Virus record (IMG/VR): IMGVR_UViG_2529293040_000025 | Span: 1-30,710 of that record | Source of the DNA: a virus | Taxonomy: Duplodnaviria > Heunggongvirae > Uroviricota > Caudoviricetes | DNA: 30,710 nt | Direction: 5' to 3' (one strand) | In this document: positions 8,547-23,130 of the stretch, in pieces | Layout: each line of letters opens with the position of its first letter | Numbering within the stretch: the stretch's first letter is position 1 | Translations under genes and position numbers: made by a program | The notes under the pieces: model-generated | What the model was told of the DNA's origin: nothing | Database searches by the model: none | What the model saw: only the letters and a program-made list of their open reading frames with translations

Positions 8547-8823
8547 TTCTGCCATTCCGGGACGTTACACTGTTCAGGCACCTTATAAAGCGGGTGCCGG
8601 GATTGGCGTCCTGAAATTGATTACTGAGCATAACCGCGCTCATGCGGTTTTTTCGTGTCATGAGCATTGCTACGCCCAAATTATGGTGGGGCGTACAGGG
8701 CCGACTTCGGTCGGGCCGGGTTCGGTAGTCTCCGGTAACGCCAACCCTGTACGTCTCACCACCTCTGTGATTGGCGTCCCATGTGGTGAGTTTTCTGAAA
8801 AACTGACTACCGGGGCTGTCACC

Positions 8824-17179: not shown

Positions 17180-17256
17180 CCGCCATTAGCTCATCGGGAT
17201 AGAGCGTCAGCCTTCGAAGCTGGCTGTGCGGGGTTCAAGTCCCCGATGGCGGTCCA
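17180..17256 (+). tRNA. argN: tRNA-Arg (anticodon TCG)
   Basis: 77 nt; acceptor stem CCGCCAT/ATGGCGG; T-loop TTCAAGT; anticodon loop CTTCGAA; ends CCA. Confidence 0.8.
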
Positions 17257-17269
17257 TTATCAGCATCAT

Positions 17270-17346
17270 GCGTTGTTAGCTCAGTCGGACAGAGCAATTG
17301 CCTTCTAAGCAATCGGTCACTGGTTCGAATCCAGTACAACGCGCCA
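17270..17346 (+). tRNA. argO: tRNA-Arg (anticodon TCT)
   Basis: 77 nt; acceptor stem GCGTTGT/ACAACGC; anticodon loop CTTCTAA; T-loop TTCGAAT; ends CCA. Confidence 0.8.
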
Positions 17347-17923: not shown

Positions 17924-18112
17924 CAGTCGTTTAACCCCAGAATAATCCCGTAACTGAGGTCGCTATTGGCGGCCTTTTTTGTATCCGCGCCACGCCCGGC
18001 GCATATCAACCACAGAGCCTTTCGGGGGTGAGCTTACGGAGTGGTCAGTGTGACTTTCTCTGTGGGCAGATCGCTCCCGGGCGTTGGCTCACCCACCCAA
18101 AGGAACGTCACG

Positions 18113-18544
18113 ATGTTTGGTATTTTTGGTAAAAAAGCCCGCCGAGCGGCAGTGGAAATTAAAAAGTTTGAGAAACGTGATCTGGCACAGGCGGTTATTA
18201 ATGCTGCCTATCTGGTGGCCTATGCAGATGGTGAATGTGAGGCTTCAGAGAAAGCGAAGATCGAGCAGATCTTGCGTAACCAGCCTGCGTTGTCCGCGTT
18301 TACGTCAGAAATTAATGCGATTAGCGCAACCATTATCGGTCAGCTGGATACGAACTTTAAAATTGGTCGTCGAGCGGCATTGCGTGAAATTGAAGATGTG
18401 AAACACGATACGCGTGAAGCGGAAGATGTGCTGGATGTGGCGGTGGCCATTGCGGAGGCAGACGGCGAAATTGAGCCGGAAGAGCGCAAGGTGCTGGAAG
18501 AGATTGCCGGTGTTCTGGGTCTTCGTCTGGAGAATCACCAGTGA
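18113..18544 (+). CDS. TerB-like (tellurite-resistance TerB domain) protein
   Basis: Paired AAYLVAYADGECEASEKAKI and AVAIAEADGEIEPEERKVLEEIAGVLGL motifs typical of the TerB fold. Start at ATG 18113 with AGGA RBS; ORF-track start 18041 is an extension. Confidence 0.6.
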   Translation: MFGIFGKKARRAAVEIKKFEKRDLAQAVINAAYLVAYADGECEASEKAKIEQILRNQPALSAFTSEINAISATIIGQLDTNFKIGRRAALREIEDVKHDTREAEDVLDVAVAIAEADGEIEPEERKVLEEIAGVLGLRLENHQ

Positions 18545-18708: not shown

Positions 18709-19022
18709 TTTTTTTATTTGCTGTTTATTAAAAATACTACTGCATGGTGAATCCCCCTGTGCGGAGGGGCGATCAGCAACCAGGTATATGGGATAATCGC
18801 GGATTCAGGTGCTGATACTGAATTCACCGGGAGGCACCCGGCACCATGCTTTGCCGCAAAAGTGTTGTTTCTGTTTTTCTCAAACTATCATCGTTATCCC
18901 TTTATTTCCGGCTGCGCATGGCGTGGCCTTTTTTTTACGACCAGCCACTGGCAGATGGCCATCCTGTAATTTGATTCCGGTTCCGGCTTTTTAACTCTGT
19001 TCCTGTACACGGGAGAAATTCG

Positions 19023-20876
19023 ATGTCGATTAAACATTATGATGTTGTCAGGGCGGCGTCGCCGTCAGACCTTGCGGAAAAGCTGACACACAAACTGAAA
19101 GAGGGCTGGCAGCCGTTTGGTAGTCCGGTGGCCATAACCCCTTATACCCTGATGCAGGCGATTACAGCAGAAGGTGATGTGGTGGTCAGTGGTGCAACTG
19201 AGCCGGATTGGTACTACGTCATCGTACTGGCCGGGCAGTCCAATGCCATGGCTTACGGTGAAGGGCTTCCGCTGCCGGATTCATACGATGCTCCGGATCC
19301 GCGCATTAAACAGCTGGCGCGCCGCAGTACAGTTACGCCGGGTGGGGCTGCATGCAGATATAACGATATTATTCCGGCCGACCACTGCCTGCATGATGTG
19401 CAGGATATGAGTACGCTGAATCATCCGAAGGCAGACCTGAGCAAAGGGCAGTACGGCTGTGTCGGCCAGGGCTTACATATTGCCAAAAAACTGCTCCCGT
19501 ATATCCCGAATAACGCGGGGATCCTGCTGGTACCATGCTGTCGTGGTGGTTCGGCATTCACCCAGGGCGCGGAGGGGACATTCAGTGCGGACACGGGGGC
19601 CAGCCAGGATTCGGCACGCTGGGGTGTGGGTAAACCGTTATATCAGGACCTGATTGCGCGCACTAAAGCTGCATTACAGAAGAACCCGAAAAATGTGTTG
19701 CTGGCGGTGTGCTGGATGCAGGGAGAGTTTGACATGAGCGCCGCCACCCACGCACAGCAACCTGCGCTGTTTACAGCCATGCTGACACAGTTTCGTGCTG
19801 ACCTCTCCGTGTTTAACGCGCAGTGCCATGGTGGCAGTGCTGCAGATGTGCCGTGGATTTGTGGTGACACGACGTATTACTGGAAAAATACATACGCTAC
19901 CCAGTACGACACCGTGTACGGCGGGTATAAAAACAGGGAGAGTGAGGGCGTTTATTTTGTGCCCTTCATGACAGACGGTAACGGCGTCAATACCGCCACT
20001 AACGCACCGGCAGAAGATCCGGATATTCCGGCATCAGGATATTACGGTGCGGCATCGAGAACGAATGGAAACCAGGTATCATCAAACCGCCCGACACATT
20101 TCAGTTCATGGGCGCGCAGGAGCATTATTCCGGATCGTATGGCAACCGCTATTCTGAACGCAGCCGGGCGCACCTCAGCTTTCATCAGTGGTAAGGCACC
20201 GGAAATCAAACCCTCGCCCGGCGGCAACACGCCATCGGGGCCGTCTGAAGATGCATCCGTACGCACAATCTCCCTGTTGCCGACAGCCGGAGAGGCTGCT
20301 GCGCAGGGCTGGACCATTAAGGACGGCGGAATTCAGTTGTCGGGTGGTGTATTTAAGATCGCCAAGCAGAGCAATAAAACCTGGTCCCTGATGCATCCGG
20401 TGGATGACGCAGTCTCCCTGCTGACACGGGGTGGCAGACTGAGCTGTAAGTTTCGACTGTCAGGCGCACTGACCAACAACCAGTTCGGCCTGGGAATTTA
20501 TCTGTATACCGATGTAGCGTTACCTGACGTCGTGGCGATGACCGGGACTGGTAACCCGTTCCTGATGTCGTTCTTCACCCAGACCACAGACGGCAAACTG
20601 AATCTGATGCATCACAAGAAAGCAGGAAACACAAAGTTGGGCGAGTTCGGGAATTACAGTAATGACTGGCAGACGCTGGAACTGGTGTTCACCGCCGGCA
20701 GTGCCACGGTTACTCCGAAACTGAATGGAGTGGCTGGCCCGGCATTCCAGGTCATAAAAGACAGTCTGACACTGGGGCTGAATGCGCTGACGCTGACGGA
20801 TATTACCAAAAATGCAGCGTATGGCGTTGAGATAGAAAGTCTGGTGCTGGAGATAAATGCACCGGCATCATCATAA
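19023..20876 (+). CDS. nanS: prophage sialate O-acetylesterase NanS-p-like (DUF1737 N-terminus plus SASA esterase domain)
   Basis: GQSNAMAYGEG catalytic-serine motif; 617 aa; sits between the tRNA/moron region and the lysis genes, where NanS-p paralogues lie in Stx phages. Confidence 0.75.
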   Translation: MSIKHYDVVRAASPSDLAEKLTHKLKEGWQPFGSPVAITPYTLMQAITAEGDVVVSGATEPDWYYVIVLAGQSNAMAYGEGLPLPDSYDAPDPRIKQLARRSTVTPGGAACRYNDIIPADHCLHDVQDMSTLNHPKADLSKGQYGCVGQGLHIAKKLLPYIPNNAGILLVPCCRGGSAFTQGAEGTFSADTGASQDSARWGVGKPLYQDLIARTKAALQKNPKNVLLAVCWMQGEFDMSAATHAQQPALFTAMLTQFRADLSVFNAQCHGGSAADVPWICGDTTYYWKNTYATQYDTVYGGYKNRESEGVYFVPFMTDGNGVNTATNAPAEDPDIPASGYYGAASRTNGNQVSSNRPTHFSSWARRSIIPDRMATAILNAAGRTSAFISGKAPEIKPSPGGNTPSGPSEDASVRTISLLPTAGEAAAQGWTIKDGGIQLSGGVFKIAKQSNKTWSLMHPVDDAVSLLTRGGRLSCKFRLSGALTNNQFGLGIYLYTDVALPDVVAMTGTGNPFLMSFFTQTTDGKLNLMHHKKAGNTKLGEFGNYSNDWQTLELVFTAGSATVTPKLNGVAGPAFQVIKDSLTLGLNALTLTDITKNAAYGVEIESLVLEINAPASS

Positions 20877-20961
20877 AAAGTGAGCCAGCCAAATGGAAGG
20901 TATCGTTAAACTCACCGGTAGTGTCAGTGGGTCGTCTGAGATGCCTGCATGAGTTATCAGA

Positions 20962-20991
20962 GCCATCAGTACTTAACTGGTGGCTTTTTTT
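20962..20991 (+). terminator. rho-independent terminator between nanS-p and the lysis cassette
   Basis: 8-bp stem GCCATCAG/CTGGTGGC with a 7-nt loop, followed by TTTTTTT. Confidence 0.45.
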
Positions 20992-21026: not shown

Positions 21027-21242
21027 ATGTACCAGATGGAAAAAATCACAACAGGTGTGTCATACACCACGTCAGCGGTGGGAACGGGCTACTGGTTCCT
21101 GCAGTTGCTGGACAGGGTTTCCCCGTCTCAGTGGGCGGCAATAGGCGTGCTGGGGAGTCTGCTGTTTGGGCTGCTGACATATCTGACTAACCTGTATTTC
21201 AAAATCAGAGAGGACCGTCGTAAGGCGGCGCGGGGGGAGTAA
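21027..21242 (+). CDS. S: phage-21-type pinholin/antiholin S (dual start, 71/68 aa)
   Basis: Near-identical to S21 as recalled ([23 protein letters not shown]...[20 protein letters not shown]); Met1 and Met4 dual-start motif; GGGAG RBS. ORF-track start 20949 is an extension running through the terminator. Confidence 0.8.
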
Positions 21243-21246
21243 AGCG

Positions 21247-21591
21247 ATGAAGAAAAAATACGAACTGGGTGTTAAAGGGATAAATAATTACCCGGATAAG
21301 ATTACTGTTACTGTGGCACTGGAAATTGGTGGGTATCCGTCACTGTTGTTGCCAGATGTGGCGATTAGTCTTGACCGTACTGAAGGTGCCACGCTGGAGT
21401 TTTACGAAGCTGAGGCGAAAAAGCAGGCGAAGCAGTTTTTCATGGATGTTGCTGCCGGGTTATGTGAAGGGGATGGTCCGTTGCCGGAAAAGCGGCCCAT
21501 CATTTTAGAGGCGCAGGATGTGTTGATAACCTACAGAGGAAAACTACCGGGAATAATTACTGGTTCTCTGAAGACTCCACCGCTGGCCTGA
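21247..21591 (+). CDS. hypothetical protein (114 aa) inserted between holin and endolysin
   Basis: Strong GGGGGAG RBS; no family recognised; acidic and soluble-looking. Confidence 0.5.
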   Translation: MKKKYELGVKGINNYPDKITVTVALEIGGYPSLLLPDVAISLDRTEGATLEFYEAEAKKQAKQFFMDVAAGLCEGDGPLPEKRPIILEAQDVLITYRGKLPGIITGSLKTPPLA

Positions 21592-21641
21592 AGACTTAAT
21601 ATATCCAGGGATTTGAAATCGATAAACCCTGATAAATATCC

Positions 21642-22175
21642 ATGAACGCAAAAATCAGATACGGCCTGTCGGCTGCCGTTCTGGCGCTGATTGGTGCAGG
21701 GGCGTCTGCGCCTGAAATCCTCGACCAGTTTCTTGACGAAAAAGAAGGTAACCACACCACGGCATACCGTGATGGTGCGGGTATCTGGACCATCTGCCGC
21801 GGTGCCATCCTGGTGGATGGTAAACCTGTCGTCCCGGGCATGAAGTTGTCGAAGGAAAAATGCGACCAGGTTAACGCCATTGAACGTGATAAGGCGCTGG
21901 CATGGGTGGAGAAAAACATCAGAGTGCCACTGACCGAACCCCAGAAAGCGGGGATTGCGTCATTCTGTCCGTACAACATTGGTCCTGGTAAGTGTTTCCC
22001 GTCGACGTTTTACAGACGAATTAATGCAGGTGATCGCAGGGGAGCGTGTGAGGCGATTCGCTGGTGGATTAAGGACGGTGGCAGAGACTGCCGTATTCGT
22101 TCAAACAACTGTTACGGTCAGGTATCCCGTCGTGACCAGGAGAGCGCGCTGGCGTGCTGGGGTATCGACAGATAA
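21642..22175 (+). CDS. R: SAR endolysin (glycoside hydrolase family 24 lysozyme with signal-anchor-release domain)
   Basis: N-terminal weakly hydrophobic Gly/Ala-rich segment (GLSAAVLALIGAGASA) followed by a T4-lysozyme-like catalytic region (E...D...T triad region); pairs with the pinholin. Confidence 0.85.
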   Translation: MNAKIRYGLSAAVLALIGAGASAPEILDQFLDEKEGNHTTAYRDGAGIWTICRGAILVDGKPVVPGMKLSKEKCDQVNAIERDKALAWVEKNIRVPLTEPQKAGIASFCPYNIGPGKCFPSTFYRRINAGDRRGACEAIRWWIKDGGRDCRIRSNNCYGQVSRRDQESALACWGIDR

Positions 22176-22267
22176 GCAGAATATTTTGCTGAAAAATAAG
22201 GCATGGCCACGCGGGCGGATAACACGAAATCCTGCGAACTGGCGAAACGTAAGTGAATAAAAGTAAA

Positions 22268-22306
22268 AACCCCGTTTGTTGGCACCAAGCGGGGTTTTGT
22301 GTTTCT
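22268..22306 (+). terminator. hairpin terminator-like element after the endolysin gene
   Basis: AAAACCCCG-loop-CGGGGTTTT stem followed by a GT-rich tail. Confidence 0.4.
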
Positions 22307-22331
22307 GACCTTGAGTAAGGCAAGGGAGAAC

Positions 22332-22514
22332 ATGGCGAAGTATAAACGAATTCTGTTGAGGTTGACTATGAAAAATGGCCTTGAACTGAAAGCGCCTGTA
22401 ACTGATGACATCAGCAGAGCACTGGCTTTTGCCATTAAGTGGGTGGCGGTCGGTGTTGCTGTGTCCCCGATGCTGTATGGGCTGGCAAAACTGGTCATTG
22501 CGTTGAAATCGTGA
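22332..22514 (+). CDS. small hypothetical membrane protein (60 aa)
   Basis: AAGGGAG RBS; C-terminal hydrophobic helix ([22 protein letters not shown]). ORF-track ORF 22299-22514 starts earlier. Confidence 0.4.
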
Positions 22515-22528
22515 AGGGAGGATTAAGC

Positions 22529-22660
22529 ATGTCAGACAAACTCATAACGCTGGCGAAGATCCTCTGTGTAATTGTCGGCATTTCATTTTCACTAATGCTG
22601 GTTGCTCTTTTTCTTTCCATGGCCTGGATGATGTTGTCTTCGTCGGGGTTGCTGGGGTGA
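22529..22660 (+). CDS. small hydrophobic peptide (43 aa)
   Basis: Strong GAAGGGAGG RBS; single long hydrophobic segment; its stop overlaps the GTG start of Rz (GTGA). Confidence 0.35.
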
Positions 22661-23130
22661 ACATAAACCGAATGCTTTCCGCGTTTATCGTTATTCTGCT
22701 GGTGGCCTGTGGTGCGCTGTGGATGGCAACAGACCATTACCGTGATAACGCGATTACCTACAAAGCGCAGCGCGATAACAAAGCCAGTGAACTGAAGCTG
22801 GCGAACGCAACCATTACTGATATGCAGGTGCGCCAGCGCGATGTTGCTGCGCTCGATGCAAAATACTCGAGGGAATTATCCGATGCGAGAGCTGAAAATG
22901 AAACTCTGCGCGCTGATGTTGCCGCTGGTCGTAAGCGCCTGCGGATCAACGCCACCTGTCCAGGCTCCGTGCGTGAAGCCCCCACCACCTCCGGCGTGGA
23001 TAATGCAACCGGCCCCCAACTGGCAGACACCGTTACACGGGATTATTTCACCCTCAGAGAGCGGCTGATGACGATGCACAAGCAACTGGAAGGGGCACAG
23101 GACTATATCCGCACTCAGTGCCTGAAATAA
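22657..23130 (+). CDS. Rz: Rz i-spanin
   Basis: Strong similarity to lambda Rz ([14 protein letters not shown]...ADAENETLR...[10 protein letters not shown]) as recalled; N-terminal transmembrane anchor. Confidence 0.8.
22883..23068 (+). CDS. Rz1: Rz1 o-spanin (lipoprotein, embedded in the +1 frame of Rz)
   Basis: Lipobox (LVVSAC) and proline-rich [14 protein letters not shown] motif as in lambda Rz1. Start could be 22883 or 22898. Confidence 0.7.

Follow-up and report, generated by a model that had tools for sequence, protein, structure and literature searches.

An optional and modular YdfR-family gene between the pinholin and endolysin genes of a lambdoid prophage

Between the genes for a phage-21-type pinholin (S) and a signal-arrest-release (SAR) endolysin (R), some lambdoid prophages carry a small gene of the YdfR (DUF1327) family. 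The example described here lies in a stretch of 30,710 nucleotides (nt), the IMG/VR virus record IMGVR_UViG_2529293040_000025 (Caudoviricetes), which is called the window below. Its 114 codons form a conserved coding gene, more than a chance open reading frame (ORF). The gene is both standard in its position and optional in its presence. The S-R junction is a hypervariable slot, which holds nothing, a short YdfR as in the window, a long modular YdfR fusion, or another protein. The evidence leans towards an accessory passenger rather than a modulator of lysis timing. The explanation that best covers the whole, put forward tentatively, is that the short-form YdfR is an optional mosaic passenger acting as a late cytoplasmic factor that binds RNase E or RNA.

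Databases already record this gene with its family and position, and it is annotated in Escherichia coli K-12; it is no new kind of element. What can be added is a map of the variable slot, a linked dichotomy at the 5' end of the endolysin gene, and the non-lysis contexts of distant homologues.

A conserved gene of the YdfR family

A first-pass annotation of this DNA described an ORF with a GGGGGAG ribosome-binding site between a pinholin and a SAR endolysin, and the description is confirmed (Table 1). The ORF runs without interruption from an ATG that lies 4 nt past the holin stop. The span first given to it, 21243-21641, does contain the gene, but it also takes in the 4-nt spacer in front and the 50-nt spacer behind.

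The ORF is set apart from chance by its match to PF07041, by being intact in 87 of 87 flanked loci, and by a polymorphism ratio significantly below the neutral value. The Pfam match scores 151.2 bits against a cut-off of 25, with residues 1-112 on positions 1-92 of the 93-position model. The protein is 100% identical to RefSeq WP_000731190.1, named “YdfR family protein”, and ydfR itself lies in the cryptic prophage Qin of K-12, in the order essQ (holin)-ydfR-rrrQ (endolysin)-rzpQ. The initial statement that the ORF belongs to an unknown family is thus mistaken. NCBIfam has no model that matches the window protein or its relatives.

A megablast search with the 345 nt of the gene finds matches in 2923 of 5426 complete E. 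coli genomes (54%), with up to 8 copies per genome. It also finds them in 369 phage records, mainly of Shiga toxin (Stx)-converting phages. Phage H-19B, for instance, carries a 99% identical copy that is unannotated in the H-19B record. In all 87 related flanked loci, the holin gene lies directly 5', ending 4 nt before the gene, and the endolysin gene lies 3'. It had been asked whether the ORF might be a standard, annotated component of the cassette with a known role. An annotated component it is, by the genome counts and by K-12 Qin, but it has no established role. The term “DUF1327” occurs in the literature only in passing, in one paper; “ydfR” is treated in substance in the E. coli literature only in PMC13232886, besides one overexpression screen; and a literature search on H-19B, Qin and lysis found nothing on this ORF.

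A word-indexed search returned 251 protein matches, all from Escherichia and Shigella. Likewise, a genome scan found relatives in Escherichia only, besides two metagenome bins; it used short peptide patterns, so that others are possible. The bins are metagenome-assembled genomes (MAGs) assigned to Firmicutes, one to Veillonella parvula (L007) and one to Bacillota (L009), and their holin-ydfR-endolysin cassettes are 81-90% identical to those of E. coli. Most likely these cassettes are binning contamination by E. coli prophage contigs.

The K-12 protein (b1555, P76160; 103 amino acids, aa) belongs to the same Pfam family, occupies the same slot and likewise begins 4 nt past the stop of the holin gene. 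Its identity with the window protein is 46% and is confined to residues 1-74, whereas the neighbouring lysis proteins are 81% (holin, with EssQ) and 90% (endolysin, with RrrQ) identical to their K-12 counterparts. The K-12 tail (residues 75-103) is unrelated to the window tail. The junctions with the endolysin gene differ as well: in K-12 the two genes overlap, the ydfR stop and the rrrQ start sharing ATGA, while in the window an “EKRPIILEAQ...TPP” tail is followed by the 50-nt spacer.

An optional slot filled with shuffled modules

The gene had been described as inserted, and relative to phages 933W and VT1-Sakai this is correct. These phages have a cassette of the same family but no ydfR, and S and R stand 4 nt apart, so that in the window the ORF parts two genes that are adjacent there. 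In 933W the junction reads GGGGAGAG-TAA-GCTG-ATG, and an equivalent Shine-Dalgarno sequence embedded in the holin gene serves R directly. YdfR is present in 101 (23%) of the 433 phage records with the holin type of the window.

A comparison of S-R intervals, which had been proposed as a check, was made on a sample of 80 viral contigs with a holin that matches that of the window at 99% identity or more. Among the 76 loci that could be classified, 55 hold a DUF1327 gene (S-R gap 358-1316 nt) and 10 hold nothing (gap 1-4 nt). The remaining 11 hold only a different protein of 185-214 aa. The gene is therefore present or absent beside holins that are at least 99% identical, in the manner of a moron. 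Classically, a moron also has its own promoter and terminator. Between 21240 and 21642 there is no forward promoter-like site or convincing terminator, and site counts do not exceed those of shuffled sequences; two weak terminator-like stems lie inside the ORF (21327-21342 and 21480-21496).

The contents of the slot are built from a few modules that are shuffled: the DUF1327 N-terminal domain, the tail (EKRPIILEAQ..ITY.GKLPG.ITGSLKTPP), a coiled coil, and a C-terminal domain. The resulting forms of the ydfR family span 89 to 329 aa, and some modules also stand alone. The commonest architecture is the 114-aa form, N-domain plus tail, which accounts for 28 of the 74 distinct intervals sampled. 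An example of the long forms is gp05 (268 aa) of the Stx2-converting phage 86; others have 296-329 aa (PHROG 1085). They occupy the same slot, and their first ~112 residues are 94-99% identical to the window protein, but they carry extra coiled-coil and C-terminal modules that the window copy lacks. In nucleotide terms, the window copy is 98.8% identical to a 329-aa form over nt 1-335 of the latter. About 675 nt are then absent, and homology returns ~22 nt before the start of R.

The 185-214-aa slot protein, which has no DUF1327 domain, is the same sequence as the C-terminal part of the long YdfR proteins (268-329 aa). It starts with MNHEEMNQRFSRLENEIAELNKKLS, ends with ...LTYLKGRI, and is alone in the slot in loci L118, L120, L134, L139 and L160. 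It corresponds to PHROG 36381 and the C-terminal part of PHROG 1085, and is fused behind the DUF1327 core in L026 and L105. No Pfam family matched it. Reverse-strand ORFs follow ydfR in some E. coli cassettes, such as gp06 of the Stx2 phage 86.

A linked change at the start of the endolysin gene

Filling of the slot goes together with a change in the gene behind it. Related loci supplied 101 distinct junctions for a survey (window 21620-21660 against L101 3195-3225), and in these, slot occupancy is perfectly correlated with the class of the R 5' end. In the seven junctions where S and R are adjacent, the leader is GGGGAGAG-TAA-GCTG; R begins MSRK(L/F)RYGLS in six of them, and the seventh has a shifted tblastn start. 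Where YdfR is present (86 junctions), R begins MN(A/T)KI(K/R)YGLS in 80 and MS or MNV in six. The leader in these is AU-rich, ...CTGATAAATATCC in most junctions and an AU-rich ...TTTAATATATCC variant in the rest, and has no Shine-Dalgarno sequence. The eight junctions with only another insert show the same MN(A/T)KI(K/R)YGLS start and AU-rich leader as those with YdfR. Since this dichotomy tracks slot occupancy, the recombination boundary of the insert lies within the first ~6 codons of R.

Of the spacer between ydfR and R in the window, only the final ~22 nt (GATAAACCCTGATAAATATCC) are common to long-form cassettes. The spacer has no significant RNA structure (fold z = -0.47), and Rfam has no RNA family between 20900 and 22300. 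Because an occupied slot comes with another R 5' end and with a leader that lacks a Shine-Dalgarno sequence, the presence of ydfR would alter how the endolysin is translated, whatever YdfR does. Conversely, the ORF uses the Shine-Dalgarno sequence that serves R in cassettes of the 933W and VT1-Sakai type. This makes the proposed co-expression with the lysis genes a sound expectation from sequence.

Distant relatives outside the slot

When 1.84 billion cluster representatives were searched exhaustively with a profile, 92 hits came up. Among them are stand-alone N-domain proteins of 72-76 aa, and such stand-alone DUF1327 proteins occur in Sodalis, Pantoea, Cronobacter, Serratia and Yersinia. They have the same beta-beta-beta-helix domain as the window protein, with Y5 and (F/Y)-Y-E, but they are only 25-39% identical, lack the tail, and lie in tail-gene modules or by other lysis genes with a convergent ORF next to them. 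Their positions outside S-R junctions include the site between the lambda-like tail genes L and K, the site before L, the site right after Rz, and sites upstream of other holin types. Since distant homologues stand in tail modules and elsewhere, the DUF1327 domain is, to judge from gene order, a mobile passenger of late operons and not a lysis-specific part.

In all six distant-homologue contexts, a reverse-strand ORF of an unmatched family lies directly downstream. These convergent ORFs (L090 4273-4821, L098 768-1328, L094 693-992, L099 768-1070, L097 335-616 and L183 1664-1978, all on the minus strand) belong to at least four unrelated families (PHROGs 18578, 25324, 10490, 1853 and 2411). 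None has a Pfam or PADLOC match. A pair of a DUF1327 gene with a reverse ORF of 182-186 aa (42% identical) is found at two sites, after Rz and between L and K. DUF1327 and its convergent ORF may travel as a mobile unit of two genes. In the window, ydfR has no such partner.

Selection and alleles

The strength of selection can be expressed as nonsynonymous changes per nonsynonymous site divided by synonymous changes per synonymous site, here taken across distinct alleles. This ratio is 0.46 for the whole of ydfR (0.53 for the N-domain and 0.39 for the tail), compared with values of 0.11 (holin) and 0.16 (endolysin) for its neighbours. For ydfR it falls short of the neutral value (p=0.001) and exceeds that of either neighbour (p=1.5e-5 and 5.8e-5). 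Pooled pairwise ratios of nonsynonymous to synonymous polymorphism (pN/pS) are 0.39 for ydfR versus 0.10 and 0.08 for the flanking lysis genes. Selection constrains ydfR 3-4 times less strongly than it does S and R.

At least three or four alleles of the N-domain can be distinguished, 45-65% identical to each other; they recombine with different helices and tails. This pattern is the signature of a functional yet loosely constrained mosaic accessory gene.

Properties of the protein

No signal peptide or membrane segment is found in the window YdfR by sequence. Its maximum 19-residue Kyte-Doolittle hydropathy is 1.18, versus 1.7 for the holin and the SAR domain. Having no hydrophobic segment, the protein should be cytoplasmic. 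Antiholins and pinholin regulators of the S21-71 and LydB types are recognised by membrane insertion, for which YdfR offers no hydrophobic stretch.

Structure prediction, another check that had been suggested, gives a beta-beta-beta-helix N-domain followed by a low-confidence tail. In the AlphaFold2 model, run on a 23-sequence alignment, strands are placed at residues 5-14, 18-27 and 38-43 and a helix at 50-73. The predicted local distance difference test (pLDDT) score is 71-89 over residues 5-73 and below 50 over residues 74-114. Across the 23 sequences, which reach down to 25% identity, only the initiator methionine, Y53 and E54 never vary, and Y5 is kept in at least 90%. The two invariant residues are part of a family motif, (F/Y)-Tyr-Glu, at the start of the helix, represented in the window protein by F52-Y53-E54.

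The tail is probably disordered in the model, but its sequence is nearly invariant among Escherichia forms. The combination of low confidence and near invariance suggests a segment that folds upon a partner. The same tail module is fused to a different N-terminus in the protein P0153. No solved relative was found in the PDB by sequence and family profile (best E=0.55, a ribosomal protein), and Foldseek searches of the PDB and of the viral structure set BFVD gave nothing below E=0.04.

A possible link to RNase E

A hint of function comes from the K-12 homologue. When RNase G was used to bait a two-hybrid screen, a fragment with codons 1-72 of K-12 ydfR turned up three times (Gopel et al., RNA Biology 2026; PMC13232886). 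This segment gave stronger signals with RNase E, and full-length K-12 YdfR interacts with Rne(1-597) (PMC13232886). Likewise, FLAG-tagged Rne(1-598) co-elutes with Strep-tagged K-12 YdfR, and the Strep-YdfR eluate contains much DNase-resistant nucleic acid (PMC13232886). Overproduction of K-12 YdfR had no effect on growth (PMC13232886). It is with this RNase E-binding segment of the K-12 protein that the N-domain of the window protein aligns.

Two other phenotypes have been reported. A screen cited in PMC13232886 linked ydfR to envelope integrity; this could be due to a resistance cassette in ydfR that reads into the endolysin gene rrrQ. In an overexpression screen, ydfR caused a 3-fold rise in the minimum inhibitory concentration of streptomycin (PMC12924614).

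On the tentatively favoured explanation, YdfR would be made in the cytoplasm late in lytic growth, alongside the lysis proteins. By analogy with K-12 YdfR, its N-domain may bind the catalytic N-terminal half of RNase E, or RNA, or both. Such binding would tune the decay or processing of phage late transcripts or host transcripts, rather than disrupt the envelope. Any effect on lysis timing would be indirect, either by way of mRNA or because R is translated from a changed start.

Several points weigh against this explanation. Overproduction of YdfR changed few transcripts, a contaminant carrying the co-purified RNA was not excluded by the authors, and the full-length short-linker fusion interacted with Rne(1-597) only (PMC13232886). 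RNase E binding is reported for the K-12 protein alone, which shares 46% identity in the N-domain and has an unrelated tail. N-domain alleles that are 45-65% identical would better fit a variable partner, and RNase E is nearly invariant in E. coli despite this diversity. The window protein is slightly acidic (pI 5.5), and most RNA binders are basic. Finally, the S-R slot is the only place in which Escherichia has kept the gene, and this would also fit a lysis-related role. Confidence is therefore limited by the degree of identity, by the small effect on the transcriptome, and by an N-domain that diversifies in a way unexpected for an invariant target.

A functional analogy is provided by phage T4. 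Its Srd protein is an early T4 product and an activator of RNase E that speeds host mRNA decay. Like the K-12 protein, Srd is reported to bind the catalytic (N-terminal) half of RNase E, a precedent cited in PMC13232886. The analogy goes only so far: no sequence relationship is to be expected, and Srd speeds mRNA decay, while YdfR overproduction barely changed the transcriptome.

Timing modulator, unrelated moron or remnant

It had been proposed that the gene either modulates lysis timing or is an unrelated moron that exploits late expression. The balance tips towards a passenger because the gene is present or absent beside near-identical holins, is under weaker constraint than its neighbours, and has homologues in tail modules, and because the K-12 homologue binds RNase E and not a lysis protein. 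A direct regulator of lysis, which is unlikely on this evidence, would attach to the pinholin at its charged cytoplasmic C-terminus or to the SAR endolysin at its short, basic cytoplasmic N-terminus, and so advance or delay triggering or release. It might also, or instead, act in cis, by taking R off the Shine-Dalgarno sequence in the holin gene and so changing the ratio of holin to endolysin. Such a role would explain why Escherichia has the gene nowhere but between S and R, 4 nt past the holin stop, and why the conserved tail module is restricted to the S-R slot. It would also suit the strict pairing of an occupied slot with the MN(A/T)KI(K/R)YGLS class of R and a leader without Shine-Dalgarno sequence, as against MSRK(L/F)RYGLS behind GGGGAGAG where S and R are adjacent. 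There is a precedent in the “releasin” gp25 of phage Mu, a largely acidic cytoplasmic protein that is needed to free the SAR endolysin and acts via lysines in the cytoplasmic N-terminus of the endolysin (PMC9239132). Like YdfR, gp25 (DUF2730) is a small accessory protein that accompanies a SAR endolysin, and its cytoplasmic domain is acidic (PMC9239132). It differs in having an N-terminal transmembrane anchor, in belonging to another Pfam family, and in being encoded downstream of the endolysin, whereas YdfR has no membrane segment and matches DUF1327 only. YdfR thus lacks the membrane anchor of every known antiholin and of the Mu releasin. The gene may be there or missing beside holins that are at least 99% identical, with no sign of holin dependence or co-variation, and 933W and VT1-Sakai lyse without ydfR, as does phage 21. 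The weaker constraint and the N-domains in tail modules speak against a lysis regulator too, as does the absence of a growth phenotype when K-12 YdfR is overproduced (PMC13232886).

Alternatively, the gene may be a moron whose target lies outside both lysis and RNase E, for instance in anti-defence, superinfection or host takeover. The S-R junction would then be a permissive, strongly translated late site, and elsewhere the domain would travel with its convergent partner. This is still doubtful, if a little less so than a direct regulator. It is consistent with presence and absence between near-identical cassettes, with the extreme modular mosaicism (89 to 329 aa, modules also alone) and with the allelic diversity of the N-domain. 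The reverse-strand ORFs after all six distant homologues, the DUF1327 and 182/186-aa pair at two positions, and ORFs such as phage 86 gp06 fit as well. But the gene has no promoter or terminator of its own between 21240 and 21642, PADLOC has no defence model for the window protein, for the long form or for any of the convergent ORFs, the copy in the window stands without a partner ORF, and no alternative target has positive evidence. Least probable of all, and distinctly so, is a decaying and functionless remnant, the truncated N-terminal third of a 268-329-aa protein kept only for the S-R translation signals. The missing ~675 nt and the high polymorphism ratio would suit it, as would length variants that resemble frameshifted or deleted derivatives (86, 89, 104, 110, 148, 162 and 176 aa). 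Yet the ratio is significantly below 1, the tail protein sequence is nearly invariant, and the 114-aa form is the commonest, with protein clusters that hold hundreds of members. Stand-alone N-domains of 72-76 aa are normal in other genera, which implies that a short form is viable, and K-12 YdfR with its 103 aa is stably expressed and binds a partner (PMC13232886).

The cassette and its surroundings

The window holds the complete lysis cassette of a lambdoid prophage (Table 1). The holin matches Pfam Phage_holin_2_1 and has a dual start, MYQM (MYQMEK...): translation from the ATG at 21027 yields 71 aa and from the ATG at 21036 yields 68 aa, with the stop at 21240-21242. The endolysin N-terminus, MNAKIRYGLSAAVLALIGAGASAP, is rich in glycine and alanine and SAR-like.

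Table 1. Coordinates of the lysis cassette in the window
Feature	Position	Strand	Basis or remark
Phage-21-type class II holin (pinholin) gene	21027..21242	+	Pfam PF04971 E=8.6e-33; sequence reading
Shine-Dalgarno GGGGGAG of the YdfR-family ORF	21233..21239	+	within final holin codons; 7 nt to ATG
YdfR/DUF1327-family gene, short form, 114 aa	21247..21591	+	Pfam PF07041 E=9.3e-45; PHROG 406 E=1e-63
YdfR N-terminal domain, codons 1-73: three beta-strands and one long helix; Y5, F52-Y53-E54	21247..21465	+	AlphaFold2 model; family alignment
YdfR tail module, codons 74-114 (GDGPLPEKRPIILEAQDVLITYRGKLPGIITGSLKTPPLA)	21466..21588	+	pLDDT below 50; sequence conserved
Spacer between ydfR and R, 50 nt	21592..21641	+	AU-rich; no Shine-Dalgarno
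SAR endolysin (R21 type), 177 aa, “MNAKIRYGLS” allele class	21642..22175	+	Pfam Phage_lysozyme PF00959 E=3.3e-24
Rz i-spanin gene, end of lysis cassette	22657..23130	+	Pfam PF03245 E=7e-47
Embedded Rz1 ORF	22841-23068		ORF list

Two other candidates were rejected. A fusion of YdfR with the holin or the endolysin is seen in some database entries (such as P0010), but these are frameshifts at the 4-nt junction, and the stops in the window are clean. An antisense ORF at 21596-21979 falls within the endolysin gene, and nothing supports it as a real gene.

The late transcript includes, ~40 nt before the start of the holin gene, a terminator-like hairpin (20959-20987; 12-bp stem, then TTTTTATT), which would presumably be read through under Q antitermination. 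A strong one (22266-22298; 13-bp stem and T run) directly follows the endolysin gene. Between R and Rz there are small ORFs at 22299-22514 (PHROG 1115) and 22526-22660 (44 aa, hydrophobic, PHROG 4906). In 933W, the interval between R and Rz is a second slot, which holds the antirepressor gene ant.

The region is laid out as the late region of an Stx phage without toxin genes. Genes for tRNA-Met, tRNA-Arg and tRNA-Arg lie at 17097-17346, a gene for a TerB-like protein (18041-18544) is at the position expected for stx, and a 617-aa esterase of the NanS-p type (DUF1737 + SASA + DUF6645; 19023-20876) is encoded just upstream of the holin. In a comparison of O55:H7, a tellurite-resistance gene replaces stx2d in a related prophage (PMC9413875). 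Above the Rfam gathering score are the small RNA STnc100 (102 bits; 18716-18885), between the TerB-like and esterase genes, and, in the early region, isrK and C4 antisense RNA (8578-8654 and 8679-8766).

Significance

The gene belongs to the lysis cassettes of prophages in over half of sequenced E. coli, including K-12, and is found in H-19B and in many Stx1- and Stx2c-converting phages. A broader picture can be drawn, although as a whole it is improbable. In it, DUF1327 would be a widespread prophage effector, restricted to Enterobacterales, which docks late on the catalytic half of RNase E or on RNA. The S-R junction would be a dedicated recombinogenic slot in which the domain, the tail, the coiled-coil and C-terminal modules and the convergent partners are shuffled, and its filling would rewire translation of the endolysin. 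Through the gene, decay of host RNA would thereby be coupled to when, or with what yield, phages are released, Stx1 and Stx2c phages among them.

If the RNase E or RNA lead holds for the allele in the window, YdfR would be the second phage protein at the catalytic half of RNase E, after T4 Srd, and the first from temperate phages. It might then influence late gene expression and lysis timing, and hence the release of toxin.

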